DNA of 64,000 bases. Source: an uncultured Acidobacteriota bacterium. GTDB taxonomy: Bacteria; Actinomycetota; Acidimicrobiia; Spongiisociales; ZC4RG35. The stretch lies in the NCBI GenBank assembly GCA_963780755.1, contig CAWACX010000001.1, positions 174,105-238,104 on the forward strand. Reading direction: 5' to 3'. The notes beneath the pieces were generated by a model. The model was not told where the DNA came from. It was given only the letters and a program-made list of their open reading frames with translations, and did no database searches. Shown piece after piece: positions 4,915-55,559 of the stretch. A program made the position numbers and the translations under genes. Positions within the stretch are counted from its first letter, which is position 1. The number at the start of each line of letters is the position of its first letter.

Positions 4915-6322
4915 CTAGTCCCGCTCCTCCGACGGGATGGGAGGCGGATCACCCGGCGGCGGCCAGGAAGGCGGTGGCTCGATCGAAGCCGGAGACAACG
5001 GCGTGAGGCGGTCGGCGACCCTGAGGAAGAAGCTGGCGGCCTCTTCGCGGCTGAGAGTGCGATTGCGGGCAGAAACGCCCGCCGCCACAACCTTCCGTCA
5101 ACCCGGCATCCGCAAACGTGTTGATGGCCGACTCCGCCCAATGCCCGCTGTCGTCGTTGAAAGCATTCCCACCAGAGGCTGGGAGCTTCAGGGCGCGCAC
5201 GGTCATCGTGGCGAACTCGGCGCGGGTCAGCATCCGATCAGGGCAGAAGGAGCCGGGATGACACCCGGTAGTGATCCCGGCGGCTGCCACCTTGTTGATC
5301 GCGCCCTCGAACAGGTGCCCGTTGTCGTCGGAAAAGAAGTCCCTGGGTGCAGGTGGGAGCGCGAGGACTCTGGCGAAGAGGGCGGCTACCTCCCCCCTGG
5401 TCATCAAGCGCTGAGGGCACGCGAGCCGGTAGCCGCATCCGTAGAGGAGCCCCCGGGCGTGGAGCTCGGTGAGCGCCTTCTTGTGAAGGCTGGCGTTGTC
5501 ATCGGTGAAGGGATCGAGGCATCCCACCCGCCCTTCCGTCGACACCACCACTTGGTCCATCGACATGGTGAGGTTGTTCGGTGTCGGCCAATCACCTCCG
5601 AAGTAGACGTTGAGCCACATCTCCCGGATCCCGACGCTGGATTCGGCCGCGCGACGAAACTGAATCCCGGTTCGCGTGAAGCGCTTCGTCCCGTCGAGCC
5701 ATCCTTCGACAACGCCATTGGCCTGACCGGGAGTGTTCAGTTTCACATGGCCCTCGATACATTGCCACCGCCCCTGCTTGAGGCTGGCCCCTGGCCAGTA
5801 CAGGCCCTCTCCACACTCTCCGGGCTGGTCGACGTGATAGAGGTAGATGCCGATGGGAACCGCTCCCGCCGGGGCCCCCTGGGTTCCTGCGGCGCCAAAG
5901 AGGCCTCGCGCCGACCATCCCGGGGAGCTCGGAGTCGACGGAATGCAGCCCCTCGCGCTCGCTGAATACAGGCCAGACAGGCCGGGAAGCTTCCCCGAAC
6001 CGGCAGAGTTCCAGTCGCGCAGCCTGATGTGATAGCGGTACCAGGCCTCGTCTGGAGAGGGCAGCGGCACTCTGTCGAAGGGGCCGAAACCGCGGAAGCC
6101 GCCGGTGGGGATGGTGACGTCCAGGCCGTAGCCGGCGAATCCGGTGCTCACCCGCTTGCCTCTTTGGACGTCGAGTGAGCGGTAGTCGACGAGCCCTTCC
6201 GCCCAGTCCTCGGTCTCGAAATCTCGAACGGCGACCGGCTCGGCGGAGGCGGGGAGCCCGACACCGGCCCCGACCATCAGGGCGGTCAGGACGAGGACGA
6301 TTCCAGATCGGATTGCCGTCAC
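4915..6322 (-). CDS. Secreted polysaccharide lyase (PL14-like) with three C-terminal SLH-like modules; frameshift near the 3' end
   Basis: Signal peptide (MTAIRSGIVLVLTALMVGAGVGLPASA), YHIRL...GKLPGLSG...GWSARGLF and GKWQ-like GRWQCIEGHVKLNTPG motifs, then SLH modules (LMTRGEVAALFARVL, MLTRAEFATMTVRAL, TLSREEAASFFLRV after the shift). Stop TAG reconstructed at 4915-4917. Confidence 0.75.
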
Positions 6323-6408
6323 CCGATGAAACCGTAGTTGCAGAACCGGGCTACGCGGTCACGAGCCGTCGTCTGGGTAACGTTGTGTGGCTTTGCTGGA
6401 AACCCAAG

Positions 6409-7514
6409 TGCCATCACGGCCAGGACGCCGATTCGATCACGCCGGCCGGATCGGCAGGCTTCGGCAATTGATGTCTGAGACCTCGACCGACGTCGTGATG
6501 CTCTCGGTCGGATCGGATCTGCCCTACTTCACCGGCTATGAGGCGATGGCGTCGGAACGCCTCACGATGCTCGTCGTGCGCCAGTCCGGTGACCCGATGC
6601 TGCTCGTGCCCCAACTAGAGGCGCCACGAGTCGGGCCCGGCCCGTACGAGATGGTGGCTTGGGGCTGATACCGAGGATCCGATCGGGATCGTGGCCCGGT
6701 CGGTCGGCAAGCCCACCCGGGTAGCGATCGGCGATCAGACCTGGTCGACGTTCATGGTCGGGCTGCAGCGAGAGCTTCCGGGTGTGAGCTGGCAGCTGGC
6801 GTCGGACCTGACCAAGCAGCTCCGAGCACGAAAGGATCCCGACGAGGTGGCAACCCTGCGATCCGCTGCAGAGGCCGTCGACCGGGTCCTGGCCAGGATC
6901 AGGTCAGAGGTACGGTTCGCCGGTCGATCGGAGAGGCAGGTTGCCCGTGACATTGCGCTGCTCACCGTCGAGGAGGGTCACGACGTGGCCTCCTTCACGA
7001 TCATCGGCTCCGGTCCCAACTCGGCCTCCCCGCACCATGAGCCCGGGCTACGGGTGATCAACGACGGTGATCTGGTGGTCTGTGACTTCGGCGGCCGGAT
7101 CGGTGGCTATTTCTCGGATGTGACCCGAACCTTCTCGGTTGGGGAGCCTGGCCCCGAGGAACTCGAGGTGCATGCCCTGGTCGAGGAGGCGAACCGCGTA
7201 GGCAGATCGGTGGTCGGGCCCGGCGTCGCCTGCCAGGAGGTCGATCGCTGGGCGCGTCGGTCATCGCCGGCGCCGGTTACGGCCGGTACTTCATCCATCG
7301 CACCGGCCACGGCATCGGTCTCGAGGTCCATGAGCACCCCTACATGGTCGAGGGCAACAGTCAGGTTCTCCAGCCGGGGATGGCTTTCTCGGTGGAGCCC
7401 GGCATCTATCTTCCGGGGCGATTCGGGGTGCGAATCGAGGACATCGTGGTCTGTACGGAGAACGGGGTGGATTCACTCAACAAAGCCGAGAGATCCCTCG
7501 TCGTAGTCAGCTAG
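6409..7514 (+). CDS. Xaa-Pro aminopeptidase (M24B), frameshifted at about 6665 and 7260
   Basis: Creatinase-like N-domain ([19 protein letters not shown]), then SASPHH, DFGG...SDVTRT and, after the shift, [24 protein letters not shown]. Confidence 0.88.
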
Positions 7515-8518
7515 TCAGCGCGGACCGTCGCCGTGGTGCGCTGAATCAATGCTCCATTCCATCGCCACTCTCCGACGAGTGTGTGGTTGCCCGGGGAGAA
7601 CACCAATGTCGTGTTCCAGCGTCGCAATGCCTGTGTCGACGATGTTGCGATCGCAAGCCCGGTGATCGACACCGGGTCTCCGTCGAGGATCAGGGTGAAA
7701 GTTGTATTCGAGGCGGTGAACTGAGCCTGCTCGCCTGCTTTGTAAGGCAGGACCTGGAAGAAGCCCTTCTTGAACCAGATGGGTCCGCCCGCTGAATGTC
7801 TCGATCAGCACCGAGCATGTGATTCCACCCTTGCCACAGCTGATCGGGGACCAATTGGCGAGAGGAAGCCGCTGTGGGTTGTGCGGGAGGTTCAGAGCAC
7901 GGGTCAGAAGCGTGGCGGTCTCACCACGGGTCAGTACCCGGTTGGGGCAAAAGCGATTGTTGGTGGGAGGGTTGCAGCCCACAGTGATCCCGGCAGCAGC
8001 GATCCGGTTGATCGGCCCTTCGAGCACGTGGCCGTTGTCATCGATGAAGAAGTCCTGATTGGTGTTCGGCAGGTCGAGGGCGCGGGTGATGAAGGTGGCG
8101 AACTCCGCCCTGGTGAGGTTGCGGTCGGGACAGAAACCGGTTGTTGGTCGGAGGGATTGCACCCAACGGTGAGCCCGGCGCCGCACCTTCGGTTGATCCC
8201 ACCCTCGAGAATGTGCCCGTTGTCGTCGACAAAGAAGTCCGGCTGGTGTTTGGGAGCTTGAGGGCACGAGTGAGGAATGTCGCCGCTTCGGCCCTGGTCA
8301 CGCTGTCGTTGGGGCAGAAGCGGTTGTTGGACGGCGGGTTGCATCCGGACGTGATATCGGCGAGGGCCATCGCCTCGATCCCGTTCTCGTGCGGGCTCCC
8401 GTTGTCGTCGACGAACGTTCCCTGGAGCACAACCGCGTCAGCCTGATCCGGCCAGAGCACTACAACCGTGCCCACCAGCACCGCCCCGGCGACACCGATG
8501 GTCAAGCCAGCGTCTCAT
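7515..8518 (-). CDS. Secreted protein with three SLH-like modules and an unknown C-terminal domain; frameshifted
   Basis: N-terminal signal/TM (TIGVAGAVLVGTVVVLWPDQADA), repeats GCNPPSNNRFCPNDSVTRAEAATFL, NLTRAEFATFITRAL, VLTRGETATLLTRAL. ATG at 8516-8518 overlaps the upstream TGA. Confidence 0.8.
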
Positions 8519-8977
8519 CAGTCGATCTGAAGCGTGTCCAGAACCTCGATTGACCCGGGGCAGCAAGTCGGCGCGGTCGATGTGGGAGCCGAGCACCACA
8601 TAGAGGCAGAAGGCCCGGCCGCGGTGAGTGAAGAACTGCTGTACTGCGCTCTGCTCGGGCAAGGCCTGTTGCAGGGCATCTCCGTCGAACTGGCGAGCCT
8701 GGAGGCCGGTGGGGATGCCTTGAGCAGCGAATAGGGGGGTGTCTGCGCTTTCAGGGCCGTATTCGAACAACGATATGAATATGTCCTGGTTGTTCATCAA
8801 CTCGACAGCGCCGGTTCCGAACGAGCCACGGAAGGGCGGGAGGGGAAAGGTCGAGAGATGCATGACGGTCGGCTCTACCGCTCCATCCGCCATCAGCTCG
8901 AATCCGCCACCGCTGATGGTTCCCTCCCATGCAACGGGAAGCTCCACGGCGACGCCTGATCGCTCGAGCCGGCTCAT
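8518..8977 (-). CDS. Hypothetical protein in the Mau-like operon
   Basis: MSRLERSGVAVELPVAWEG...QFFTHRGRAFCLYVVLGS; protein-like composition, coupled at both ends (ATGA and TGATG). A 1-bp shift near 8550 restores ...EVLDTLQID*. Confidence 0.75.
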
Positions 8978-9676
8978 GACTCGTCCTCGAGCGGGTTCTC
9001 GTAGAGGGACGGGTCGCCGGGGAGGACCCCTGCCGCTCGCAGTTGCCCATCTGGCGGGTTTCGCCGATCGTTGGGGGTCAGCCTGATGGCATTGGCGTCG
9101 GCCGTCGACTGGCGAAGGAGGCCGAGCAGGTGTTTCCAGCTGGCGGCGGCGCCCTCACCGATCACCATGCCGGTCCCGTCGACGAGCATGAAATACGGCG
9201 TCATCGGGACTTTGAACGCCTGCCACACCTCATCGGACATGAGCAAGGGGACACGGTGAAGGCGCGAGCTCCCGGACCCGGGATGGCGACTCCGACTCCG
9301 GTCCCTTGGTGACGATCACGGCCCTGGTGTCCGGAGTCGGGGGTTCGAAGTCGCCGCTGAGCTCCTTCCAGAAGGTCTCACAGCTCAGGCATCCGGAAGA
9401 GAGGAAGGCGAGCATGGTCTTTCCTCGCCCCTGTTCCAGGCTGATGGTCTGAGCACCCCCTGCCAATGTGACCCCGTTGAGCGTGGTCGACGGCGCCCGT
9501 TCGAACCCCGTTGTCTTGGGCTGTGTCTGCGCGGAGCCCACGGTGACGGTGCCTTCCTCGCTGACTCCGAGCGCATGGAGCTGGCGCAGGATCTCAGCGT
9601 GGCTCTTGAGGAGGCCGGCGACCAGGATCGCCAGAACAGGATGACCACGGCCCTCGATGACGATCACGGCGGTCAT
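8974..9676 (-). CDS. MauD-like membrane-anchored thioredoxin (CxxC), frameshifted
   Basis: N-terminal TM followed by LLKSHAEILRQLH, then LAFLSSGCLSCETFW and a cis-Pro region (FKVPMTPYFMLVDGTG). Architecture matches MauD-type proteins. Confidence 0.78.
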
Positions 9677-11010
9677 CAGGCGTTCCTCCCCCAGGTGACA
9701 GGCAGGCCGTTGGGGTTGCCGAAGGTGAAGGTCGATTGCGCCGATCCCGATGACAGGGTGTTCCGGATCGACCAGGTGCCGGCGTTGAACCACCCGATCC
9801 CGGTCACCCCGTCGCCGTTCCAGTCCCCGGTCACCGGCCGGCCCGGTCCGCCTCCGAAGGTGAAGTCGAAGTTGGGATTTCCGGCGGAGAGCGAGTTGCG
9901 GAGCATCCAGCGACTGCCCCGGACCATGCCGATCCCGGTGGAGCCGTCACCGTTCCAGTCACCGACCACCGGCATGTCGCCGGGCTGGCCGAATGTGAAG
10001 TCGTAATCCGGGTCGCCGGCGCGATTCGAGTTGCGGAGCATCCAGCGATTGCCCCGGACCACGCCGATGGTGTGAACTCCGTTGCCGTTCCAGTCGCCGA
10101 TCACCGGGATGTCGCCGGGCCGTCCATACCGGATCACCAGCTCCGGGTCACCCGGGCCCTTCCACCTGACGCAGGTACCAGATGAGGTCGGTGGCTCCCG
10201 CTACGCCGTGGCGGACGTTCTTGACCACGCCAACGGTGCGCACCCCGGAGTTGGAGAAGTCGCCGGCGACCGGGTAGTCGCCGGCGAGCCCCGAAGTCGA
10301 ATGTCTGGTTGGCGCCGGGCCGCTGCTGGCGGCGATTGCGCAGCTGCCAGGTCGTACCCGGTGTAAACGGCCGGCCAGGCCGGATAAGGGCCTTTGGGTG
10401 TGGTGTCCGGTAACAGGCCTGCGGCGTTGTGGGTATACGTCGACTGGGAGACGGCCGAAGTCGTGGAGCACGATGAGTCCCACTCCCACGGCGGCACGCA
10501 GGTGACCACGCGACAGGTGATCGGCCCGATGCACGGCTTGTGGTTGTTGCACTGTCCGTAGCGGAACCTGGTGCAGCAGGTCTTGCGCTCGCTGCAGTTG
10601 TCGTGGTTGCAATGGCAGTTGCAGTCGACGCAGGTGTGCGCACAGGTCCCAGAGCCGCCACAGCTGCACCCGCCGCAGCTCGCCGAGTTGCAGTCCAGGT
10701 AATAGCGGCTGTTGCCGTCGCAATAGGTGTTCCCCTCCGCCCGCCACCAACCGGCGACGATGTTTCCCGGGGGACAGGTGTTGACCCCGGTGATGTTGCA
10801 GCAGAAGTCGGTCCAACCGTCGTTGCACCGGGCGCCGGAACTGCATTGCCCGGGGACCACAGCTGCGTACGCGCTTCCGGGTCGAAGCAGGTAGGTGGTG
10901 GGTGCCGCCACCAAGGCAGTCCCCACCATCGCCGCCCGCCTCAAGAAGCCACGGCGGGATGTCCTGTTGTCGAGAGCCCGGGACGCGGCCTCGACAAGTC
11001 TCGTGCTCAC
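9676..11010 (-). CDS. Tat-exported Cys-rich protein (amine dehydrogenase light-chain-like N-domain) fused to GDWNGDG repeats; frameshifted at about 10130-10360
   Basis: GTG start overlapping the MauE stop, Tat motif TSRRGFL with AYA cleavage site, 23 Cys in about 126 aa (CNDGWTDFCC...CPPG...GWWRAEG...YYLDC), followed by tandem repeats. Confidence 0.8.
9690..10360 (-). repeat. Four to five tandem repeats of about 47 aa (W.LRN...F.FG.PGD.PV.GDWNG.G...IG), probable beta-propeller blades
   Basis: RYGRPGDIPVIGDWNGNGVHTIGVVRGNRWMLRN / TFGQPGDMPVVGDWNGDGSTGIGMVRGSRWMLRN / TFGGGPGRPVTGDWNGDGVTGIGWFNAGTWSIRN, plus the degenerate LAGDYPVAGDFSNSGVRTVGVVK. Confidence 0.85.
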
Positions 11011-11525
11011 GACGTGCCTGCCAGGGACAGAGTGCTTGGAAGTCGCGCGAGCAATAGGTAGGAGAGGTAGGCCCCGACCATCCCAAACCCGAGGAAGAGC
11101 ACGAGATCCTCGACTTGGCTCGACCAGGGAACGGGCTCCGCTCCAGTGACCACCAGCACGGACAGGGCGGTCACGGAGATCACGTTGTAGATCACATGGA
11201 TGACCGAAGGAGGCGTGTCCTCGCGGCCGAAGCACCCGCAGCTCTGTACCGGAATGCGGCGTCGGACCGCTGCCAGGGTGAACCAGGTGAACCCGACATA
11301 GAGGAGTGCGGCGGGAGCGATCCACCAGGCCCCGAGGGCCAGCCCAACGACCGAGGCGATGATCTCGACCGCACCCAGAAGGCGGGCGATCATCGCCGAT
11401 GAGGGGAGCCCGGCGGCCTTCATCGCACCTCGGGTCGGGTTGGGATCGACGACCTTGGCAACGCCGCTGGCCGCCAGGAGGAGGAGGGCGATGGTTGAAA
11501 AGGCTGACGCAACCACCGGTGGCAC
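11007..11525 (-). CDS. mauE: MauE/DoxX-family membrane protein
   Basis: LLLAASGVAKVVDP, GAVEII, and the CGCFG signature (SCGCFGRED); about five TM helices. Confidence 0.85.
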   Translation of the reverse strand: MPPVVASAFSTIALLLLAASGVAKVVDPNPTRGAMKAAGLPSSAMIARLLGAVEIIASVVGLALGAWWIAPAALLYVGFTWFTLAAVRRRIPVQSCGCFGREDTPPSVIHVIYNVISVTALSVLVVTGAEPVPWSSQVEDLVLFLGFGMVGAYLSYLLLARLPSTLSLAGTS

Positions 11526-36123: not shown

Positions 36124-37218
36124 ATGCAAGCGGGAGAGTCAGTGCGAAGGGTGACCGCGCTGTTGGCGACGCTGTTCGTCGTCGTTGGCTTTGCTCTGCC
36201 CGCAGCGGCAGCTTTCGACCCGCTGCAGATCGACTTTCCGCTCGATGGGCCGCATCGCATCACTGACAGCTTCGGTGATTGCCGGGGCGCCAATTGCGCC
36301 CGAGCCCACGAAGGTGTCGACATCATGTCCACCGGGGGGAAGGGGATACCTGTAGTCGCTGCTGCCGACGGGGTGGTGGATTGGGTACCGACCCAGTGTT
36401 GCGGTCTCGGCATCGATCATGGTGACGGCTGGCAGACCCGCTATATCCACCTCAACAACGACACCCAGGCCGCCAACGGGTCGTATACCGACGATGGCAA
36501 GGGCTGGGGTATCGCCCCCGGGATCGTCGACGGCACCGTGGTGACCAAAGGCCAGCTCATTGGTTGGTCCGGCGACTCGGGCAATGCCGAGAGCACCTCA
36601 CCACACCTCCACTTCGAGATCCGGAGGAACGGGACTGCCATCGACCCCTATCCCTACCTGCTCAAGGCTGCCGGTGCTTGGCAGGGATATTTCATCGATG
36701 ATGACGGGTCGGTCCACCAGAACAACATCGACAAGATCTACGTCGCCAAGATCACATTGGGATGCAATCCACCGCTGAACACGATGTTCTGCCCGCAGCG
36801 GAACATCACCAGGGGGGAGATGGCTGCGTTCATTGCAAGGGCCCTGCATCTGACAGAAATGAGTGGCGTTCCGGCCTACAACGACGTCGACGGTCACCTC
36901 TTCGAAATTGCGATCGACAAGATCCAGACTGCCGGGATCGGCTTCGGCTGCGACGCAGACAGCTTCTGTCCCGATCGACCGCTCGAGCGCGACGAGATGG
37001 CGGAGCTATTGGTTCGAGCCTTCGGCTACCAGAACGAAGCCGGGACCAACTTCTTCACCGATGACGAAGGCAACCCGTTCGAGGAGTCGATCAACAAGCT
37101 GGCGAGTGCCGGGATCACCGTTGGCTGCAACCCCCCGACCAACGACCAGTTCTGCCCCGACCGCAACCTGTCACGCGGAGAGATGGCGACGTTCTTCGTG
37201 AGGTCGCTCGGTCTCTAG
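36124..37218 (+). CDS. Secreted M23 peptidase with three SLH-like modules
   Basis: Signal peptide, HEGVDI, YIHL, PHLHFEI, then NITRGEMAAF, LERDEMAEL, LSRGEMATF. Confidence 0.9.
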   Translation: MQAGESVRRVTALLATLFVVVGFALPAAAAFDPLQIDFPLDGPHRITDSFGDCRGANCARAHEGVDIMSTGGKGIPVVAAADGVVDWVPTQCCGLGIDHGDGWQTRYIHLNNDTQAANGSYTDDGKGWGIAPGIVDGTVVTKGQLIGWSGDSGNAESTSPHLHFEIRRNGTAIDPYPYLLKAAGAWQGYFIDDDGSVHQNNIDKIYVAKITLGCNPPLNTMFCPQRNITRGEMAAFIARALHLTEMSGVPAYNDVDGHLFEIAIDKIQTAGIGFGCDADSFCPDRPLERDEMAELLVRAFGYQNEAGTNFFTDDEGNPFEESINKLASAGITVGCNPPTNDQFCPDRNLSRGEMATFFVRSLGL

Positions 37219-38634
37219 TCGACCACGTCGTAATACTCGGAGACCACTTCCAGGCGGCGCTTCCGATATTCCTCGCTCGAGTCGGGGAGCAGATGCTCGA
37301 AGGGGGCGCCCAGGTCGAGATCAGACCGGCTCAACTCGGTGGTGATCGCCAGCGGCAATGGGCCTCCGCCAATTGGAGTCTCAGGGACGTCGACCAATCG
37401 CACCTCGGTTCTCTTCCCTCTCGCCGCCGGCTCCCTTCCCAGCATCCGCTTCAGCGAGTCGGTGCGCTCCTCACCGATGGCGACCTTGACCGAGTCTTTC
37501 GCCCTTTGCACCGTGTCTGCGATCGCCACCGACGGTTTGCGCCGGCGGGTATCGAAGCCCGTAGCCAATGCGACCACGGTGGATGCCGTCTGTTCTGCGC
37601 CGACAACCTCCGAACGGGTGGCGGCTGCGGCTGCGGCGAGCTCGGCGCGTTTCCCGGGTACTAAGAGCTGCTGCAGAGCCGTGACAACAGCCTCCGGCTG
37701 GTCGTCCGCGGCGTTCACCCCGATCCCGAGCTCGGTGAGTCTGCGGGCCCTCGCGACCTGGTCGTCGGTTCGGGTGGATGTGTTGGCGACGAACAACGAA
37801 GGCACCCCTGATGGCACGAGCTCGTGAACGGCGTTGTACCCGGCGGAGCTGACCGCCAAGTCGAATGCCGACAGGTAGGCCACCAGCGGATAGATCCCTT
37901 CGAGGTGGGTGATCCGGTCGGCGGTTGCGAAATCGAGGCGGTTCCGAGCAACGGCCGGCGAGGTCACGGCGAGGTGGAAGTCGGTATTCGACAACAGGGT
38001 TTCGATTGCCACCGATCCCGGGCCGGCCACGTCACCGAGCATCCCGGATCCCAGGGTTATCAAGGCGATCTCGGCGTCGAGGGGGAGACCGAGTGCCGCG
38101 CGGGCGTCGGCACACGGCAGAGGGTCGAGGACCTCGATCAGGCTCACCGGCGCCACACGCTCGACATTGCGGGCGCCTGCAGTGGGACCACGGTCCATAC
38201 CGGCGAGGTCCCCGGGCTCGATCACGAGGTCAAAATGGCCGGCTCGGCGCAACTGGCCGGTGTTGGTCCCCTCCTGCCACATCCCCCGCCGCAGCCAGGA
38301 AAAGGCGACGTCACGAAGCCGCGGCCGATGCCATCGCGATTCCCGGATAGACCGCGACGCCGTCGAACAGGACCACCTCGGCTCCGATCTCCTCGACGAT
38401 TGCGATGAGGCGGTCGCGCAAGTAGCCGTGCCATTCCCGGCCGGCGATCCATGGCTTGTCATAACTGGGGGCGTATTCGCCTCGTAATCCGAGGCCCAGC
38501 GCAAGCGGCAGCCCGACCGAGAGCGAGAAGAGTGTCGGATGATCCTCGCTTCCCAGTGAGAGCCCGATGGCGGCCTGTCGGGTGAGGTGGCCCATGCCGG
38601 TCCCGTTGCTGGTGACGAGGAGGACGCTGGTCAT
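37215..38634 (-). CDS. GT-B glycosyltransferase (GT28/MurG-like), frameshift at about 38330
   Basis: LVTSNGTGMGHLTR, LITLGSG, AVSSAGYNAVHE. Confidence 0.78.
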
Positions 38635-41123: not shown

Positions 41124-42860
41124 GATCTCTCGACCTCGAAAGGCATGATCCGGTAGCTCGGCGCCATGAGGTCGACTCTGGTGATCCCGTCGCGCTCCTC
41201 GACCTTCGCTTGGGGGGCCTCGGAGGCGAGGAATCTGCGGAGCCCGCGGGCCGATCCCTCGATATAGATGTAGCGCCGGGCAGCCAACAGGAAGTCCTCG
41301 AGGCCATCGAGATCCTCGGCCCGGGTCGCCACCGTTTCCATTCGGCCCCGACCGAGGCGTTCCTTGGTCAAGGCGGCTGCATCCCAGACCTCGCGGTCGG
41401 GTAGTTCTTCCACCAGATCAGGCGCGGCCAGGTGGGCGACTCTCTGCACCTCCACATCGTCGTCGATGGCCCTCGCCAGGGTGGATGTTGGGTCGGCTCG
41501 GGAGATGGAGCGCTTCTCGGTCCGGATTGCGATCTCGAACAACTCGTCGACTCGATGGTCGTAAGTGTGAAGCCCCATGGCGCGTTCCAGAGCGGAGTCG
41601 GCGATGTCCTGAAGCGAAGACGGATCCCCGAGGAGTCGATTCACATCGCGAACCACGTCGTCGGTCAACACGGCGTACTGCGACCCTTCGTCGAGGATCA
41701 TCTCCATGCCGGGGAGCCGGTCCGACAACAAGACCGCTCCGGAACCAACCGCTTCGAGCACCCGCATCGTGATCGGATAGTGGCGGGTACCGCCCTCGTT
41801 GATCACGATCCTGGAGTCACCGTACAAAGTCGGCCATCTCCTGCGCCGAAACTGCCTCTTTGAACCCGAGATGGTCAGCGGGCAGCGCGTTGTCCAACTC
41901 GCTCACCAACTGCTGGCGCCGCCCGTAGGGCCCGCCGCCGCGGATCTTGGCCCCAACCATCGCCACGTCGTAGCGGCGTTCGGCAAGCGGGCGCCGTGCG
42001 TCGAGCAACTCGGTGGCCACCCCGAACGGAAAGCGGTGCACTGGGGCCGAAAGCCAATAGGCGAGGTGCCATGAGTGAGCCATCAGCACCGCATCGGCTC
42101 GGTAGCGATCGGCGAGACGGGAATTTGCGTGGAGATGGTGCTCTCCGTGGTGAAACCAGAACAGGACGGGCACTTGGGTATCGCCGGTCACCTTCAACGC
42201 CGGATAGGGGCCTTCGACGAACATCACGAAGTCGGTGTTGGGGTCGACTGCCGAGAGATCGATCCCTTCGGTCTCCACGCGAACGTCGGCACCACTGCGA
42301 GTCAGCCCGGCCTCCAGGTACTTGCCCGGGTTGATCTCGCTCTTGCGGTAACAGAGCACGACCTTGCGGCCTCGAAAGCGCCCGGGCTCAGGGAGGTACG
42401 GTCGTCGCTGGTCTTGGGGAGTGTGAAAGGAGCCAAACCCGGCGACCGGCGCAGCCAACTCCGGTCTCGTCGGCGCCAGGTCGATGAGATCTACTTCCGG
42501 CACCGGATCCATTTTGGGGGTACGGGCAACGGCCCCGCCGGTCTCTTTGGCGGCCTCGACGGCCGCAGCGAGAGCCCGCAGGTCGGTCGGGACATAGATG
42601 TCTGCGCCAGTAGAGGCGGCGGATGCCGCCAGCGCACGGGTCAGCCGCGCTGCCTTCTCGTCGGCCGAAATGCCCCTTCCCTGGATCCGGTCCCATAACC
42701 CGACCCCGTCGACTTTGACGCGGGTCACGCCTGGCAGAACGGGTCCCGCTACGGGAAGGACTGTGTCGACGGTGTGGCCCGCCTTCCCAAGCAGATATCG
42801 GGTGACGCGGGCCCTGGGGTCGGTGAGGGCGTCGTTGGGCGCCACGAGGCAGATATGCAC
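41120..42860 (-). CDS. Glycosyltransferase (GT4-like N-part plus CgeB/Glyco_trans_1_2-like C-part), frameshift at about 41830
   Basis: DPRARVTR N-terminus; YDVAMVG, IVINE, ITMRVLEAVGSGAVLL, HTYDHRV. Confidence 0.75.
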
Positions 42861-42901
42861 GGCGGAATCGTAGGTATCCCCCTGACCTGCGGGCAGTCAG
42901 G

Positions 42902-44707
42902 TCAATCGAACTCCACCGCTCGCTTGATGAATGCTGCCATCTGGCCGCGCGTCACCAGATCGGTGGGGCAATACCGGTTATTGGTCGGGGGATTGCATCC
43001 CTGCGTGATCCCGGCGACCGCGATCTTGTTGATCGCGTGCTCGAAAACCGAGCCCTCGTCGTCTACGAACCGATCGGCTCTGTGTTGGGGGGAGCGACAA
43101 GGCTCTGGCCAACATCGCCGCCATCTCGTCACGCCTGATGTCGTCACCACCGCAGAAGCGCCTTGTCCCGCAGCCCACGGTCAGGCCGGCCGCGGCCAGG
43201 CGGTTGGCCGCCCCTTCATAGAACTGGCCCTCGTCGTCGTTGAAGTAGTCCGTTCCCGACTCCGGGAGCCCAAAGGCGCGGGAGAGAAACACCGCCATTT
43301 CGCCGCGGGTCACTCTCTGCGTGGGGCAGTAATTGGTGTTTGCAGGCGGGTTGCAGCCCTGGGTGATGTTGGCGTCGGCGAGCCAGTCGATGGCATCGAC
43401 GAAGACGGAGCCCAGCGGTGTCCACGAAGCGGTTGGTGATGCTGCGCCCGATGTTGAGACGACCGCTCTGGACGGTTCCGCTCGATGCCGGCGGTCGGTC
43501 GGCGAATGCCTTTAGTCGGGCTATGACCTCCTGATGGCCGATCCCCGGGTCGTGGGCGAGGAGCAGCGCCGCGGCACCAGCAACGATGGGGGAGGCAGAA
43601 AGAAGTCCCGTCGGCCAGTATGTATGGGTCGATCGAGGATGAGCCCGGTGGTCAGAATGGCCTGGCCGGGAGCCGCTATGTCGACCCAGTGTCGGCCGTA
43701 ATTGCTGAAGAAGCGACAGTTGTCCAGGTCGTTGCGTGGCGCCGACTGCGATGATGTTCGAGAAGGGCAGTCCGCCGGGATGAAGGTCTCGCCGGAGGGT
43801 GGCAGGGCGTCGAGGTCGATGCCCTCGTTGCCGGCGGCCGCCACGACAACGACATTTCTGGACCTCGCATAGGAGATGGCCTCCCTGAGCAAGGGATCGT
43901 CGTCGGTGACGCCCCCAAACGAGAGATTGATCACATCTGCGCCCTCGTCGGCGGCGTAGAAGATCGATTCTGCTGCGGGGAGGCTCCAGCAACCGTCGGA
44001 GTCGCAGGCTCGAAGGGCCATGATTCTCGCTGCCGGAGCGACCCCAGCGATCCCAATCCATTGCGGCCGCGGCGACCAATCCGGCGACTGCGGTCCCGTG
44101 GTTCGCAGCGGATCCCGATCCCACCGGGCTCGGATTGTTGTCATCGCTGATGAAGTCCCATCCTTGGAGTCGTCCAGAAGCCCACTGCCATCCTGGTCTC
44201 CGCCCCCGGACGGGTCGTTGTTCGTCCAGATCTGGGCCGCAGGTCGGGGTGGCACAGCTCGACCCCTGAGTCGATCACGGCGACCATCACACCGGCGCCG
44301 AGAGTCGACTCCCAGGCCGTTGGCGAGTCGATGTCGGCGTCGGGGCGGCCGCCGGTCTGCCCGGTGTTGTGGTGATACCACTGGTCCCCGAAACCGGGCT
44401 CATCGGTCGGGGCCGCAGGATGGTCGTAGCGATTCTCGACGATCACCTCGACTCCCAGCTCGTCGGAGAGGGCGTCGGCTGCGTCCTGGGCGTTCTCCGT
44501 GGTCTGTCACCTCGACCCGCTCCCAGCCAGATCGATGGCCGTCCGCGTCCGGCTCTGCCTGGGCCGCAAATCTCGTCGGCGATGGCAAGCGATGTGCCTG
44601 CCGGGACGAGCAGTCGGACAGTCTTCGCCTCTCCCTCGGCGGCGGTTTGCTGGGTGAAGAGGCTCGGCCACGAGGAGCAGCGAGAGGACGAGCGGACATC
44701 GGGCCAT
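42902..44707 (-). CDS. Secreted S8 subtilase with three C-terminal SLH-like modules; many frameshifts
   Basis: VAVIDSG, NHGTAVAG, VINLSFG, AAAGN, GTS(F)ASPIVAG, then VTRGEMAVFL, IRRDEMAAML, VTRGQMAAFI. Confidence 0.85.
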
Positions 44708-44761: not shown

Positions 44762-46465
44762 TGTCGTTCCTTGCCACCCTTGCTTTGGTGGCTGCGCTGC
44801 TCCCCACAGCGGCGCTGGCACCCGGTGGGACGTTCACCGACGACGATCAAATCGTCCACGAGGGCGGCATCGAAGCCATCGCCGCGGACGGGATAACGGT
44901 CGGGTGCAACCCGCCATTCAACGACCGTTTCTGCCCGAGTCGCCTGCTGACCAGAGCGGAGATGGCGACGATGGTCGCTCGTGCCCTCTCCCTCCCGGCG
45001 CCGCAAAGCGACCATTTCATCGATGACGAGGGTCACATCCTCGAAGGGAGCGATCAACCGAATCGCCGACGCCGGGATCACGCAGGGCTGCAATCCACCG
45101 AGCAACAATCGGTTCTGCCCGAACCGTGACCTGACCAGGGCAGAGGCCGCAGCGTTCATCGCCCGCGCGTTTGGATTGCCCGGATCTGGGCAGAACTTCT
45201 TCGTAGATGACAACGGCCATGTCCTCGAGGGCGCGATCAACCGCCTTGCAGCCGCCGGGATCACGGTTGGGTGCAACCCGCCTACCAACAACCGGTTCTG
45301 CCCCAACCGCGTGCTCACCCGAGGTGAGATGGCGACCATGTTGACCCGGGCGATGGGCTTGACCTCGATGAAGCCCCCACCCCGGCCACCACTTGGCCTG
45401 GCAGCTGGTGGTCAGCGGCCTTAGCTGCCCGATCCAGGTCGCTCAACCCCCGGCGAAGACCCGCCTCCTGATCGCTGAGCAGGGTGGGCTGGTCAGGGTC
45501 TTCGAGAACGGGGCGCTGCGCACCCAACCGTTCCTCGACCTGACGGACAAGTGGTGTTCGGTGGAGAACGAGGGCTGCTCTCGATCGCGCTCCATCCCGA
45601 TTACCCAGCCGACCGTCGCCTCTTCGCCTGGTACTCGGCTCCGCTTGCGCTCCGGTGGAGCGGGGAATCACACCACATACATTGGTGGAATTCGACATCT
45701 CCGCCGACCTCCAAGTCGGCGTCGTCCCACGCGTCAACTGCTGGCGTCGACCAGCCGTCCAACAACCACAACGGCGGGTTCCTCGACTTCGGCGCGGATG
45801 GCTATCTCTATCTCAGCCTGGGTGACGGTGGGGGGGCCAACGACCCGGGCAACCGGGCGCGAAACCTGAACACGCTTTTCGGCAAGATGATCCGAATCGG
45901 CGTCGATGGCGCTGCAGCCGTACTCCATTCCCTCGGACAATCCATATGTGGGAGAGCCGGGACGCGATGAGATCTGGGCCTCGGGCTTGCGCAACCCATG
46001 GCGGTGGTCCATGGACAACGGGTTCCTTACATCGGCGACGTCGGGCAGGGAGCCCGGGAGGAAGTCGACGTGGTGCGGGTCAACCCTGTCGGATACGACT
46101 TCGGGTGGTCCCGCTACGAGGGAACGCTTGTGCAACCCCAACGACAGCGATCCCAGTTGCGCCACGTCCGGCCTGACGATGCCGGTTTACGAGTACGGCC
46201 GCTCGGGGGGGAGGACCGTGACCGGCGGGATGGTCTACCGGGGCCCCACTGTGCGTTCCTTGAGCCGTTACTACATCTTCGCCGATTTCGGGTCCGGGCA
46301 TGGTGCGCGGGTTCCGCCTGCTCAACGGCCGTCCGGTCGAAGCCCGTGACCTCATCGGCCGGCTTCGTGCGCCCGGCCTGGTTTCCTTTGCCGCCGACGC
46401 CGATGGCGAATTGCTCGCCGTTTCGCTGTATCGACGGCGCTGTCTACCGTCTCACCGGGGGTTGA
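44761..46465 (+). CDS. Secreted protein with three N-terminal SLH-like modules and a PQQ-dependent sugar dehydrogenase (GSDH) propeller; frameshifted
   Basis: LTRAEMATM, LTRAEAAAF, LTRGEMATM, then ERGLLSIALHPDY, NHNGGFLDFGADGYLY, GDGGGANDP, GLRNPWR. Confidence 0.85.
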
Positions 46466-46507: not shown

Positions 46508-48327
46508 GTGAGGCTTCGTCATCCGATTGCGGTTTTGGCCATTGGCCTGGCCCTTCTCACCATCGCCGCGCCCGCCTTCGCTGCCGATGAGGAGTGGGAA
46601 TTCGACGGCGGGGGATGGGGCCACGGCGTTGGGCTCTCCCAGTTCGGGGCGTTGGGACAGGCCCAGGATGGCCGAAACTCCACCCAGATCCTCCAGCACT
46701 ACTACGCCGGGACCTCGGTCGTCGAGATGCCCTCCCATTGGAGCACCGCGGCCAACGGTCTTTGGGTCGGACTGGTGCTCGAACGCCGACCGTTGTCAGC
46801 CTCACGGCCGGTCGGTGGGCCACTGACCATCTGTCAGCCCGCTGCGGTCTGCCCGCCGGCGAACGGGTCGGGTTTCACCGACGTCACCATCGATCCCGGC
46901 GAGTCATGGGTGTTCGAGTCCGTTGGCACCGGGGTGTGCCGTTTTCGCAAAGGGACCGAGGGAAATCTCGGGGCCGGGCCCGTGTGACGGCCGTCTCGCC
47001 AAGTCGACGAGCACGAATGTCCGGTTCCGGGTGAATGGCAAGGAGTACGCACGGGGGTCGATTCGCTTCACTCCCTCGTCGGGCGGATTCCACACCAATG
47101 TCACGTTGAGCCTCCAGGAGTACCTCTGTACGGGTCTGGCCGAGGTCCCGTCGTCATGGCCAACACATGCGCTCCGGGCCCAGGCGATCATCGGGCGCAG
47201 CTACGCAGTGGCCACCGCCGTGGAGCGGGGGGGCAGCGACGGGTCCGGGAAGCTGTCGAGTTGTGGGTGTCACCTGCGAAGCACTCCGGCGGACCAGGCC
47301 TACGCCGGATGGAGCAAGGAGGACCCGGCCAACGGTGGCAGCACCTTGGGTCGCGGCTGTGAACGACTCCGCAGGGGACATCCTGACCCATCCCCAGTCC
47401 ACTTATGCCTTCGATATCGCCAAGGCCTTCTACTCGTCGTCGAATGGGGGAGCTAGCGAGAACGTCGAGTTCGTGTGGGGTGGCGCTGCCTTACCGTGGC
47501 TTCGATCCGTGGCCGATCCTTGGTCCTCCGATCCGGACATAAACCCGCTCGCCCGCTGGACCGTGGTGGTGAAAGCCCCCAAGATCGCAGCGGCCTTTGG
47601 TTGGGAACGAGTGACGATGGTCGAGGTGACGAGCGGGCCTCCGGGCGCTGTGGTTCGATTCACCGGTCGAAATGCAGGGGCAGTTGTCACGAAAGACCTC
47701 TGGGGCGACAGCCTCCGACTCTTCCTCGGGGCAAACGCTTTCCGAAGAGACGGTGACCCGGTCCGGGTGTCCCCCTACGTGATCGGTATCCGCTACCAAG
47801 GCCCCTTCCTGGACATATCGGGCCATCTCTTCGAAGACGCCATCATCTGGATGGGCCAGGAGAAGATCAGCGAGGGTTGCAACCCACCCGTCAACTCCAA
47901 CTACTGCCCCGATGACAAAGTGACCCGTGGTGAGATGGCGGTCTTCCTTTCCCGCATCCTCAACCTTCCGATCCCCTCCGGAGACCACTTCAGTGACGAC
48001 GACGGGCGGTTCTACGAATCTGCGGCCAACCGCTTGTTCGAGGCGGGGATCACCGAGGGCTGTGGGGCGAATCGGTACTGCGGCGACCAGTTCATTCCCA
48101 GGGAGCAGATGGCCGCCTTCCTGGCGCGCACGCTTTCGCTACCGGCGAGCGGCGTCGATCATTTCATCGACGACGAGGGCTCGATGTTCGAAGGGGCAAT
48201 CGACAAGATCGCTCAGGCAAAGATCACCCTGGGGTGTAATCCGCCAACCAACAACCGATTCTGCCCCAAAGACCATGTGACCAGGGGCCAGATGGCGGCG
48301 TTCTTCAAGCGTGCCTGGGGATCCTGA
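46508..48327 (+). CDS. Secreted SpoIID/LytB-domain protein with three SLH-like modules; frameshifted at about 46985 and 47340
   Basis: Signal peptide, GGGWGHGVGLSQFGA, LQEYL...AEVPSSWP...ALRAQAIIGRSYA, FYSSSNGG, then VTRGEMAVFL, IPREQMAAFL, VTRGQMAAFF. Confidence 0.87.
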
Positions 48328-48349
48328 GCCCTCCTACCATCCGGTCGCA

Positions 48350-49641
48350 GTGACAGATAGAGCGAGGTTCTTCGCCGAGGAGCCGTGGACCGCGGGCATT
48401 GTCGGATTGGGCTATGTCGGCCTTCCACTCTTGGTGACCTCGGTGAACAGCGGCCTGTCGGGGATCGGGTTCGATGTTTCGCCGGCCAGGGTTGCGGCCC
48501 TGGAGTCAGGCACCTCACACATTGGTGACGTTTCCGATGAAGCATTGCGCTCGGCGGTTGCCAGCGGAGCAAGGTTCACCTCCGATGCCGCGGCATTGTC
48601 CGAGGCAGATGCGATCTTCATCTGCGTTCCCAGCCCCCTTGGTCGTAACCGGGAGCCGGATCTCTCCTACATCGGCGCCGCTGCGGAGACAGTGGCCCGG
48701 GTGGCCCGCCCCGGCCAATTGATCTCCCTCGAGTCGACCACTTATCCGGGCACAACCGAGGACTACCTGATACCGGCAGTGGAGAAAGCCGGTCTCACTC
48801 TGGACAAAGACGTCTGGGTCGCCTTCTCACCGGAGCGCGTCTCGCCGGGTGACGACATGAAGACCGCGGACATCCCCAAGGTGGTGGGAGGGGTCACGGT
48901 CGACTCGGGACTGGTGGCAGCCGCCGCCTACAAGAGGATCGTCCCATCTGTGCACCTCGTGAGCTCGGCGCGAGCCGCCGAGCTGGCGAAGCTCCTCGAG
49001 AACACATATCGGGCGGTCAACATCGGCCTGATCAACGAGGTCGCCCAGCTCAGCCACGAGCTCGACATCGATATCTGGGAGGTGGTGGACGCCGCGGCGA
49101 CCAAGCCCTTCGGGTTCCAGGCCTTCTATCCCGGCCCCGGCGTTGGGGGGCACTGCATCCCTCTCGACCCCCAATACCTCGCCTGGCGGGCCAGGGAGGC
49201 CAACTTCGCGACTCGTTTCATCGAGATCGCCGATCAGGTGAATTCCGGCATGCCGGAGTACACAGCACAGAGGATCGCCGACCTTCTCAACTCGGCCGGC
49301 CGGGCGGTCCAGGGCAGCAACATCCTGGTGGTTGGAATCGCCTACAAGCCCAATGTCTCTGATGATCGTGAATCCGCCTCCGTCGATGTTGCGAGTCGCC
49401 TGGCGGCCAGGGGAGCCAACATCGCGATCCTGGACACCCACGTCGCCGCCATCAGATCGAAGCCCACGGGTTCGAGGTGGCTGATGGGAGCGACCTCTCG
49501 GGATACGACCTGGCGGCGATCCTCACCGATCACTCCGACCTCCCTTACGAGGTCATCGCTGCAGAGATCCCACAGGTCTTCGACGCCCGGGGCGTCTATC
49601 GGCGGCGAGGCATCGAGGCGTCAAACGTAGAAGCTCTATGA
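48350..49641 (+). CDS. UDP-N-acetylhexosamine 6-dehydrogenase (WecC/WbpO/TviB family); 3' frameshift
   Basis: GIVGLGYVG, ICVPSP, LESTTYPGTT, FSPER, KLLENTYR, GVGGHCIPLDP, GIAYKPN. Confidence 0.9.
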
Positions 49642-54121: not shown

Positions 54122-55559
54122 GTGGACATAAGAACGGCGAGCGCCGACACGGACCTCGAGCGACGCGACACTGGTTCTCGGGATGCTCGTCGAACGGGCT
54201 CCGTTGCCGGGCGCTGACGGTTGGACTGGCGGATGTCGACGAAGCCCTGCTGGACCTCGCGCAGTTTCGAAGGAAAGGCGGGCCAGGTGATGACGCTACC
54301 CCATCCCGATGCGGCGGCAGTGGTGATCGTTGGACTTGGTGACGAGGCGACGTTTCGAGACGATTAGGGCGGGGATCGGCAACGCAGTTCGGGCTGTGAA
54401 GACCGAGCGGGCGGTGACCTCATTGGGCCTGTCCCGGTGGACGGCGCGACTCGCGCAGTGGTCGAAGGAGCGGTGCTCGGGGGGCTACGAGTTCCGCGGA
54501 TACAAGACGAACGGCGACGATCTTTCGTATGAGGCGCCTCGATATGGTGGGAGCCACGACCGAGGCCATCGCTGATGCCTTGATCGGGGCTGAGGCCACG
54601 AACCAGGCCCGGGATTGGGTGAACACTCCTGCTCTCGACAAGGCGCCACTCGATCTCGCAGACGCACATCGGTGAGGCCGCTGGGCCTGCCGGGGTCGTC
54701 GGTGGAGATCTGGGACTGTCGAACGGATCAAAGAGGAAGGCCTTGGTGCATTGCTCGGTGTCGCGGCGGGCTCGGATCGCGATCCTCGCCTCGTCATTCT
54801 CAGGTACGAGCCGAAGTCGGCGGTGGCACATCTCGGGCTGGTTGGCAAAGGGATCACCTTTGACAGCGGCGGCCTATCGATAAAGCAGGCCAACTTCATG
54901 GAGGAGATGAAGGATGACATGTCGGGGGCGGCAGCGGTGGCGGCGGCAACAATTGCGATTGCCCGTCACGCGCTCCCGGTGACAGTCACTGCAGTGCTCC
55001 CACTCACCGACAACACAATCGGGGGAAAGGCAACTCGACCCGGAGACGTGCTCCGACCGGTGCAAGGTCCGACTATCGAGGTGCTGAACACCGATGCCGA
55101 GGGCCGCCTGATCCTGGCCGATGGACTGGGAGTGGTCTCTCGGTTCGAGCCCGATATCACCATCGACGTCGCCACACTCACCGGCGCCGCCCGTGTCGCA
55201 CTCGGTGATCGGATCGGTGCCGTGTTCGCGAATCCGATCCCGATGTCGCTTCCCGGGTGCTGGTGGCCGCCTCCCGCGCCGGAGAACCGTTCTGGGAGCT
55301 GCCCCTGTTCAAGGAGTACCGGAAGACGATCGATTCCGACATCGCGGACCTCAAGAACATCTCGGGCGGCCGATACGGAGGAGCCATCGTCGCCGCTCTC
55401 TTCCTCGCGGAGTACGCCGGCGAACGAGCCTGGGCCCATCTCGATATCGCCGGCCCGGCTCGAGCACGCGAGACGATGGGGGAGCAGGTGAAGGGCGCGT
55501 CCGGAGTGGCGGTGCGCACCTTGATCGAGGTGGCGCGAGCGATGGCGGAGCCCACTTAA
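54122..55559 (+). CDS. pepA: Leucyl aminopeptidase (M17), multiple frameshifts
   Basis: RBS AAGGAGA; GLVGKGITFDSGG, MKDDMSGAA, NTDAEGRL, DVATLTG, WAHLDIAG. Confidence 0.9.

Follow-up and report, generated by a model that had tools for sequence, protein, structure and literature searches.

Homologues of the methylamine dehydrogenase helpers accompany a Cys-rich protein family with a MauA-like leader in the Acidimicrobiia

Introduction

[quoted passage not shown] That subunit, MauA, is made with a twin-arginine translocation (Tat) signal and carries disulfides. The present analysis concerns a five-gene operon with homologues of such helpers, located on the minus strand at 7511..11525 of a 64,000-nucleotide stretch of DNA (the window, meaning the whole stretch analysed) from an uncultured bacterium of the class Acidimicrobiia (assembly GCA_963780755.1, contig CAWACX010000001.1; C1:174105-238104). 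The source genome comprises 2.2 Mb in two contigs, C1 and C2, with ~65% G+C and a completeness of 88.9%. A 2026 preprint has given MauE the new role of a general oxidase of the DsbB type: in Escherichia coli it can stand in for DsbB, its CXC cysteines, Lys, and Glu features are essential, and MauA is found in only ~10% of MauE-bearing species (bioRxiv 10.64898/2026.03.05.709764). Given this last figure, a MauE without MADH is not odd in itself. What is new here is the coupling of the Mau helper kit to a new client family.

The genes of the operon encode, in order, a MauE-like protein, a Cys-rich protein, a thioredoxin-like protein, a small protein, and a protein with SLH-type repeats. An initial annotation, made from the letters of the window alone, had described five minus-strand genes with an overlapping stop/start at every junction; three-frame translation recovers all five, and the overlaps are where they were placed (GTGA at 11010-11007, TGATG at 9678-9674, ATGA at 8977-8974, and TGATG at 8520-8516). 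It went wrong in ending the operon at 7515, since the true stop of the SLH gene occupies 7513-7511, and in taking the five genes as given: frameshifts were overlooked, and only mauE is an open frame in this assembly. Its central proposal, a disulfide-folding machine devoted to an exported and Cys-rich protein, without the amine dehydrogenase heavy chain or MauG, is now supported by linkage, co-distribution, the presence of a separate DsbB pair, and the failure to find MauB, MauG, or MauJ in the genome. The analogy with Mau is in fact stronger than was assumed then, as the set also includes a MauA-like leader and a MauF homologue.

The Cys-rich client and its leader

The Cys-rich gene (9676..11010, minus strand) begins with a 49-aa twin-arginine leader (10864..11010, minus strand; ...LVEAASRALDNRTSRRGFLRR...AYA), which matches TIGR01409 at 18.5 bits against a cut-off of 16.7 and in which the Tat motif SRRxFL is followed by a hydrophobic stretch (TSRRGFLRRAAMVGTALVAAP). 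This leader was compared with a MauA profile built from 30 precursors, the Paracoccus light-chain sequence having been checked against the PDB. With hhalign, the two leaders align with a probability of 96% and E 1.7e-9, the signal lying in 26 leader columns, and the whole family aligns with MauA at a probability of 95.6% and E 1.3e-8 when leaders are included; none of 300 column shuffles of the leader reaches the real score (45.0 versus 10.0±2.3). Furthermore, when a hidden Markov model (HMM) of the MauA leader was run against the 25,386 six-frame open reading frames (ORFs) of the genome, the Cys-rich gene was the only significant match (27.5 bits, E 2.3e-6; the next at E 0.16), and other Tat-like signals scored 4 bits or less. 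In the reciprocal search of the Paracoccus locus, MauA was the top match, a weak one (E 0.043). By these sequence comparisons, the similarity of the leader is to MauA specifically and is not a generic Tat likeness.

The head domain that follows (10396..10863, minus strand) has 156 aa with exactly 23 Cys, the number that the initial annotation had given for its Tat protein. About 16 of these are invariant in the family, together with the motifs GWW, RY.DC, FRYGQC, and CRxxxC. The family comprises 395 clusters at 50% identity and occurs in more than 583 species genomes, the close homologues all coming from Acidimicrobiia metagenome-assembled genomes (MAGs), and its head always stands after a long Tat leader and before a variable tail. 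The head has no match in Pfam, NCBIfam, or PDB sequences (phmmer and profile HMM), and no literature on the family and no function for it in any annotation or paper were located. From an alignment of 37 sequences, AlphaFold2 gives a model with a predicted local distance difference test score (pLDDT) of 85 and a predicted template modelling score of 0.82, for which the best Foldseek match in the PDB has E 3.9.

In this gene, the tail (9679..10395, minus strand) consists of four to five FG-GAP-like repeats (GDWNGDG) with a weak match to FG-GAP_3. Elsewhere in the family, LGFP repeats occupy this position in 34 of 88 tails, and others are of CWB2, FG-GAP, DUF4214, or SLH type. Because the tails swap among wall-binding modules, the tail is likely a wall-binding or anchoring module and the head is likely wall-anchored. 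The same replacement by LGFP, CWB2, SLH, or DUF4214 in other members led to rejection of a built-in "heavy chain" propeller, formed by the repeat tail, as a defining feature.

How far the likeness to MauA extends into the mature protein is less clear-cut. A greedy alignment is collinear, though weak: it pairs, in order, C..DG, CC/CxC, CPPGT, Trp57 (an invariant W in the family), Asp76-Cys77 (an invariant D-C), and CxC, and it ends with YRP..NDIIWCFG of MauA against FRYGQCNQxIxCxG of the family. In this weak alignment, the GWW motif falls on beta-Trp57 of the tryptophan tryptophylquinone (TTQ) cofactor, and the column of beta-Trp108 is variable. By a column-shuffle control, the similarity of the mature domain to MauA is weak but non-random: the real score is 22.0, the shuffles average 13.8±2.8, and 2 of 300 attain it. 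Pfam PF02975 has no match to the protein at E<=0.01, and genome-wide it has only an unrelated 14-bit match on C2. Direct membership among the MADH light chains was rejected, as Pfam, NCBIfam, phmmer and profile searches of the PDB, hhalign (against 1mg2_B and against the 30-sequence MauA profile), and Foldseek are all non-significant for the mature domain. Taken with its leader, the head is a probable distant homologue of MauA, or at least a protein that shares its maturation tag.

The initial annotation had reported no MauB, MauG, or amicyanin in the window, and none was found across the whole 2.2 Mb genome either. Pfam HMM and tblastn searches for mauG and mauB found neither, so a standard MADH or aromatic amine dehydrogenase (AADH) is not indicated. 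Since the MauB model PF06433 matched none of 14 control genomes, the absence of MauB is judged by tblastn with the Paracoccus sequence; in tblastn, Paracoccus MauB, MauG, and MauJ gave best E values in the genome of 6.1, 0.25, and 1.7, respectively. The initial annotation also saw no CxxCH cytochrome in the window; a single CxxCH does occur there, in the (probably spurious) ORF 54877-55308. As a heavy chain, MauG, amicyanin, and the second TTQ tryptophan are all missing, the client is read as neither an amine dehydrogenase nor a TTQ enzyme.

The Mau-type helpers

The MauE-like membrane protein (11007..11525, minus strand; 172 aa, intact) scores 64 bits (E 1.7e-17) with Pfam PF07291, for which the cut-off is 27. 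It has the CGC-FG loop (SCGCFG), a Lys in the first transmembrane (TM) segment (GVAKV), and a Glu in the second (AVEI), all retained in the family consensus, and the genome encodes no other MauE. By analogy, it is a putative DsbB-like, quinone-linked thiol oxidase. The genome has no VKOR. It does have a DsbB homologue at C2:938163-938528, directly followed by a 256-aa thioredoxin/redoxin-like protein, and these two (together at L088 1426-2546, plus strand) presumably form a second, general disulfide-forming pair. Given this separate pair, the MauE of the operon looks dedicated.

The third gene (8974..9676, minus strand) encodes a membrane-anchored, MauD-like protein of the thioredoxin fold, with a CLSC motif and ~233 aa in orthologues. 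The family consensus combines a TM helix with C..C..FW and a cis-Pro loop. Its NCBIfam matches are few and all weak, and MauD is the only one among them of the thioredoxin type.

The MauF homologue was recognized from relatives, whose clusters contain a 194-aa membrane protein assigned to Pfam DsbD_2; aligned with Paracoccus MauF, it gives an hhalign probability of 97.6% and E 2.9e-12 over 166 columns. The alternative that this protein is a CcdA-type electron conduit was rejected, as 36 of 52 members have no cysteine at all and the protein is homologous to MauF. No such gene lies inside the cluster of the window, whose clade lacks the cluster copy. The homologue is instead found unlinked at C1:764367-765071 (L090 4365-4988, minus strand; HMM E 1.6e-42), with a tblastn match at C1:764496-764933 (E 1.3e-4). 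It sits between ftsK and the E1alpha/E1beta/E2 genes, and in a distant relative (L005) the whole mau-like cluster adjoins E1alpha/E1beta; this shared neighbourhood suggests that the cluster moved in the present lineage and left mauF behind. The MauF-like protein of Nakamurella has an N-terminal "WSPCG(L/Y)S" that Paracoccus MauF also has and that the shorter versions of the Acidimicrobiia lack.

Conservation of the module

The association was surveyed by HMM searches of six-frame ORFs at the 80 best species-representative loci. Beside the Cys-rich gene, the thioredoxin gene is present in 77, MauE in 76, and the small-protein gene in 74, so that, as the initial annotation would lead one to expect, homologues of the Cys-rich gene nearly always stand next to MauE and the thioredoxin. 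The cluster includes the additional membrane protein, i.e. the MauF homologue, at 52 of the 80 loci, and an SLH-type ORF is found at 42, a count in which the HMM also catches unrelated flanking SLH genes. The order is almost always MauE-Cys-Trx-(membrane protein)-hyp-(SLH), and most missing partners reflect contig ends. Three relatives have the arrangement seen here, MauE(169)-Cys(439)-Trx(233)-hyp(152)-SLH(332); in a more distant one, the 194-aa membrane protein is added and the genes on either side are quite different. Outside the class, the cultured Nakamurella alba carries the full cassette as an operon (WLYK01000019.1, L091 5118-9588) in the order MauE, thioredoxin, small protein, Cys-rich protein (whose tail is of LGFP type), and membrane protein (HMM E 7e-32 to 3e-80).

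In a class-wide sample of 201 genomes, the Cys-rich domain occurs in 51 (about a quarter) and MauE in 117. Of the 51 with the Cys-rich domain, 49 also encode MauE, in most cases no more than ~1 kb away from the Cys-rich gene. Within the taxonomic order of the window organism, both are present in 25 genomes and both absent from at least 19, with 1 and 1 discordant. The MauE copies linked to the client score ~36-65 bits against the Pfam model, compared with 70-110 bits for other MauE proteins of the class, and appear to be a divergent subfamily.

The small conserved protein and the SLH protein

The small conserved protein (8518..8977, minus strand), of 152 aa in orthologues, belongs to the core of the module. 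Neither a signal peptide nor a TM segment is present in it, and Pfam, NCBIfam, and PDB sequences offer no match. Its AlphaFold2 model (pLDDT 91) has weak fold matches to Tsi3, PsbP/CyanoP, MTC28, LpqN, and the EagT6 chaperone (E 0.02-0.1, TM-score ~0.4). An identification with MauJ was rejected, there being no similarity to MauJ and only a weak PsbP/DUF1795-like fold. As a speculative guess, it might be a cytoplasmic chaperone or handler of the precursor or its leader.

The last gene (7511..8518, minus strand) encodes an SLH-type cell-wall-binding protein, ~332 aa in orthologues, with a signal peptide (MRRWL...). It is a lineage-specific member of the module. The intact orthologue matches SLH (PF00395) at E 5.1e-10 and 39.6 bits against a cut-off of 20.8; because of the frameshifts, the fragment in the window reaches 19.8 bits, just under it. 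At least five more SLH-type repeat proteins, several of them frame-split, occur in the window (42785-43412 and 5066-5515 on the minus strand; 44770-45421, 47800-48357, and 36685-37230 on the plus strand). At 4949-6322 (minus strand) there is a 457-aa secreted protein with C-terminal SLH-like "FxDDxGxxxExxINxxAAAGITxGC" repeats, whose orthologue in L002 is annotated as Polysacc_lyase_14 + SLH. With its repeated SLH proteins, the region looks like a cell-envelope island.

A proposed function and the evidence against it

The explanation that is considered likely, though with a substantial reserve of doubt, is that the operon is a Mau-type cassette dedicated to the oxidative folding of one client, which is wall-anchored, distantly related to MauA, and not an amine dehydrogenase. 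In this model, the client would be made with its long, MauA-like twin-arginine leader and exported. Outside the membrane, its ~16 conserved Cys would be oxidized to disulfides by the MauD-like, membrane-anchored CxxC thioredoxin, which would in turn be re-oxidized by the DsbB-like MauE, with electrons passing from the CGC loop to quinone as expected from the family. The MauF homologue, unlinked here, would be part of the same set, and the small cytoplasmic protein would probably, if speculatively, act on the precursor or leader before export. The mature client would then be a disulfide-knotted head held at the cell envelope by its repeat tail, beside the SLH protein; the head would probably be related, very distantly, to the TTQ light chain, and its activity might be binding or catalysis at the wall. 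The dedicated relationship is argued for by the linkage of the genes, their overlapping junctions, the MauA-like leader, the co-distribution with MauE, and the separate DsbB pair.

It should be noted that several observations weigh against this model. Elsewhere in the class, MauE occurs without the Cys-rich client. Aligned without its leader, the mature domain matches MauA at an hhalign probability of only 4-5% (E 0.007-0.011, over 13-22 columns around CPPGT), which is not significant. Foldseek of the pLDDT-85 head model against the PDB returns no MADH or AADH chain. The genome has no match to MauB (PF06433) or MauG (PF03150), and its completeness of 88.9% leaves that absence less than absolute. 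The naming of the thioredoxin as MauD-like, which goes back to the initial annotation, holds for the CxxC (CLSC), the TM anchor, and the adjacency of the genes, and does not extend to the MauD model TIGR02661, where the family scores 16.5-21.1 bits (E 1.7e-4 to 4e-3) against a cut-off of 188.6; its hhalign match to Paracoccus MauD (probability 95.6%, E 1.2e-8) is one that any thioredoxin fold would produce. Positive residues follow the TM helix of this protein, which bears on the topology of its domain. Finally, export through the Tat system followed by oxidation outside the cell is unusual, though MauA poses the same paradox.

Alternative explanations

A first alternative holds that the head is a new protein-derived-cofactor enzyme: standing alone and anchored to the wall, it would be related to the TTQ light chain, the invariant Trp of its GWW pair (the one aligned with Trp57) would become a quinone or a Cys cross-link without MauG, and MauE, MauD, and MauF would mature it. 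The MauA-like leader and the three Mau helpers are as this would predict, as is the greedy alignment, where Trp57 of MADH meets the invariant W and its Asp76-Cys77 the invariant D-C, and the many invariant polar and aromatic residues besides Cys suggest a functional site. However, the alignment of the mature domain is statistically weak, the position aligned with Trp108 is variable, the cluster is without MauG, a flavoprotein, a radical-SAM maturase, or a redox partner, and wall-binding tails fit a structural or binding protein equally well. Thus, the alternative is thought unlikely. The same low expectation attaches to its broader form, in which the head, diverged and self-contained, would descend from the TTQ light chain or be a cousin to it, carry a MauG-independent protein-derived cofactor or Trp/Cys cross-link, and act as a redox enzyme on the actinobacterial wall, and the leader would be a recognition tag that couples Tat export to MauE, MauD, and MauF. 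If this were true, it would explain the role of MauF, MauD, and MauE, and the odd leader of MauA, in classical MADH biogenesis.

It has also to be asked whether MauE and the thioredoxin are simply the general extracytoplasmic disulfide system of this lineage, the Cys-rich gene being one client among many. MauE is able to act as a generalist replacement for DsbB, and most MauE species are without MauA (bioRxiv 10.64898/2026.03.05.709764); the many class members that have MauE and no Cys-rich client also fit such a role. The same genome, however, has its DsbB and thioredoxin pair elsewhere, in the taxonomic order of the window organism MauE hardly occurs without the Cys-rich gene, and the linkage, overlapping junctions, and MauA-like leader point to a dedicated relationship. 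A purely general role is consequently regarded as improbable.

The broken reading frames raise the different question of whether the cluster is still functional. Four of the five frames are disrupted by at least 10 single-base indels within 4 kb, nearly all of them insertions and mostly in short homopolymer runs. Because the nucleotide alignment to relatives (71-81% identity) is too noisy to resolve every indel, only recurrent, uncompensated ones are given here, apart from a compensated pair in the thioredoxin gene. The Cys-rich gene has three +1 insertions, each an extra G in a G-run, at ~10357, ~10290, and ~10152, with a stop at 10201; tblastn and alignment to intact orthologues of 438-443 aa trace a frame path of 2 to 0 to 1 to 2 between ~10360 and ~10150. 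There is a frameshift near 9258 in the thioredoxin gene (its compensated pair being at ~9650/9637) and one near 8549 in the small-protein gene, and the SLH gene has at least four, at ~8505, ~8156, ~8137, and ~7770, which spread its tblastn pieces over three frames.

A count of this size in four of five genes is what would be expected if the frameshifts were real mutations in a decaying pseudogene cluster. Yet the indels are nearly all 1-nt insertions, mostly in homopolymers, with no nonsense mutations and no large deletions; the Cys-rich protein is still 80-88% identical to its intact orthologues; and among relatives the nearest are "MFD...bin" MAGs, whose contigs are very long and which are taken as long-read assemblies. 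In the relatives, the orthologues are intact at 169, 439, 233, 152, and 332 aa and have the same overlapping junctions. Unrelated genes, including the essential gltX, an M24 peptidase gene, an E2 gene, and further SLH genes of the window, show the same kind of breakage. Since the indels lie in homopolymers, the orthologues are intact, and unrelated genes are likewise affected, the frameshifts of the window are probably indel errors of a long-read assembly and not decay; real pseudogenes are judged very unlikely. The split genes in question are the neighbouring M24 Xaa-Pro peptidase gene (window 6387-7506, plus strand), gltX for glutamyl-tRNA synthetase (C2, ~937 kb; L088 99-1233), and the 2-oxoacid dehydrogenase E2 gene (C1, ~761 kb; L090 777-2245). 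They suggest that such errors are widespread in the assembly and that "pseudogene" or "fusion" calls in this genome need checking against relatives.

Least credible of all is a Cys-rich domain carrying metal or Fe-S clusters that were put together in the cytoplasm, with the Mau-like proteins serving some other purpose: cytoplasmic assembly would explain Tat export of a protein of such extreme Cys content, but the invariant Cys show no ferredoxin-type CxxCxxCxxxC spacing, the densest Cys stretch of the head is its least conserved, the partners are proteins of the thiol oxidase type, and the nearest analogue, MauA, is itself a Tat-signal protein with disulfides.

Significance

In this cassette, three Mau helpers travel with a different, uncharacterized client that retains a Tat leader of the MauA type, which suggests that they are a general kit for the maturation of very Cys-rich exported proteins. 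The cassette is widespread, occurring in about a quarter of the sampled genomes of the class and in the cultured Nakamurella, and the leader together with MauE, MauD, and MauF may be an ancient, portable module for the export and oxidation of extremely Cys-rich proteins. It thus offers a tractable second system in which to dissect each helper and the leader. The client represents a new domain family that would reside on the envelope of abundant soil and water Actinomycetota, with a confidently predicted fold for which no structural relatives were found.

Comparison with known systems

Relative to the mau cluster as known from, e.g., Paracoccus (mauF-B-E-D-A-C-J-G-M-N), the present locus has tightly coupled genes and homologues of MauE, MauD (a weak one), and MauF, but no MauB, MauG, amicyanin, MauJ, or MauM/N; it adds a conserved 152-aa cytoplasmic protein, and its order is E-A'-D'-(F')-hyp. 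The client resembles MauA in its long Tat leader, whose n-region follows the MauA pattern (LVE..SR..A.RTSRR), and in being small and extremely Cys-rich, with a common order of motifs (C..DG / CPPGT / W / DC / CxC / [FY]R..N..I.C.G). It differs in that its head is larger (~156 versus 125 aa, with ~16-23 versus 12 Cys), does not conserve the Trp108 position, fails PF02975, has no Foldseek match to MADH light chains, and is fused to wall-binding repeats.

With the generalist MauE of the recent preprint (bioRxiv 10.64898/2026.03.05.709764), the MauE of this operon shares the CGC-FG loop, the Lys, the Glu, a partner of the thioredoxin family, and the lack of MauA, MauB, and MauG. Here, however, it coexists with a DsbB system and is tied, both genetically and phyletically, to one client family with a MauA-like leader, and it looks specialized.

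The logic proposed for the cassette is like that of the DsbB-DsbA, VKOR-Trx, and BdbC-BdbD pairs, in which a membrane quinone-linked oxidase re-oxidizes an extracytoplasmic CxxC protein of the thioredoxin fold that oxidizes exported substrates. In contrast to those pairs, the membrane protein here belongs to another family (the MauE/DoxX fold), additional components are present in the form of the MauF-like and small cytoplasmic proteins, and the whole apparently serves a single client routed through the Tat system.

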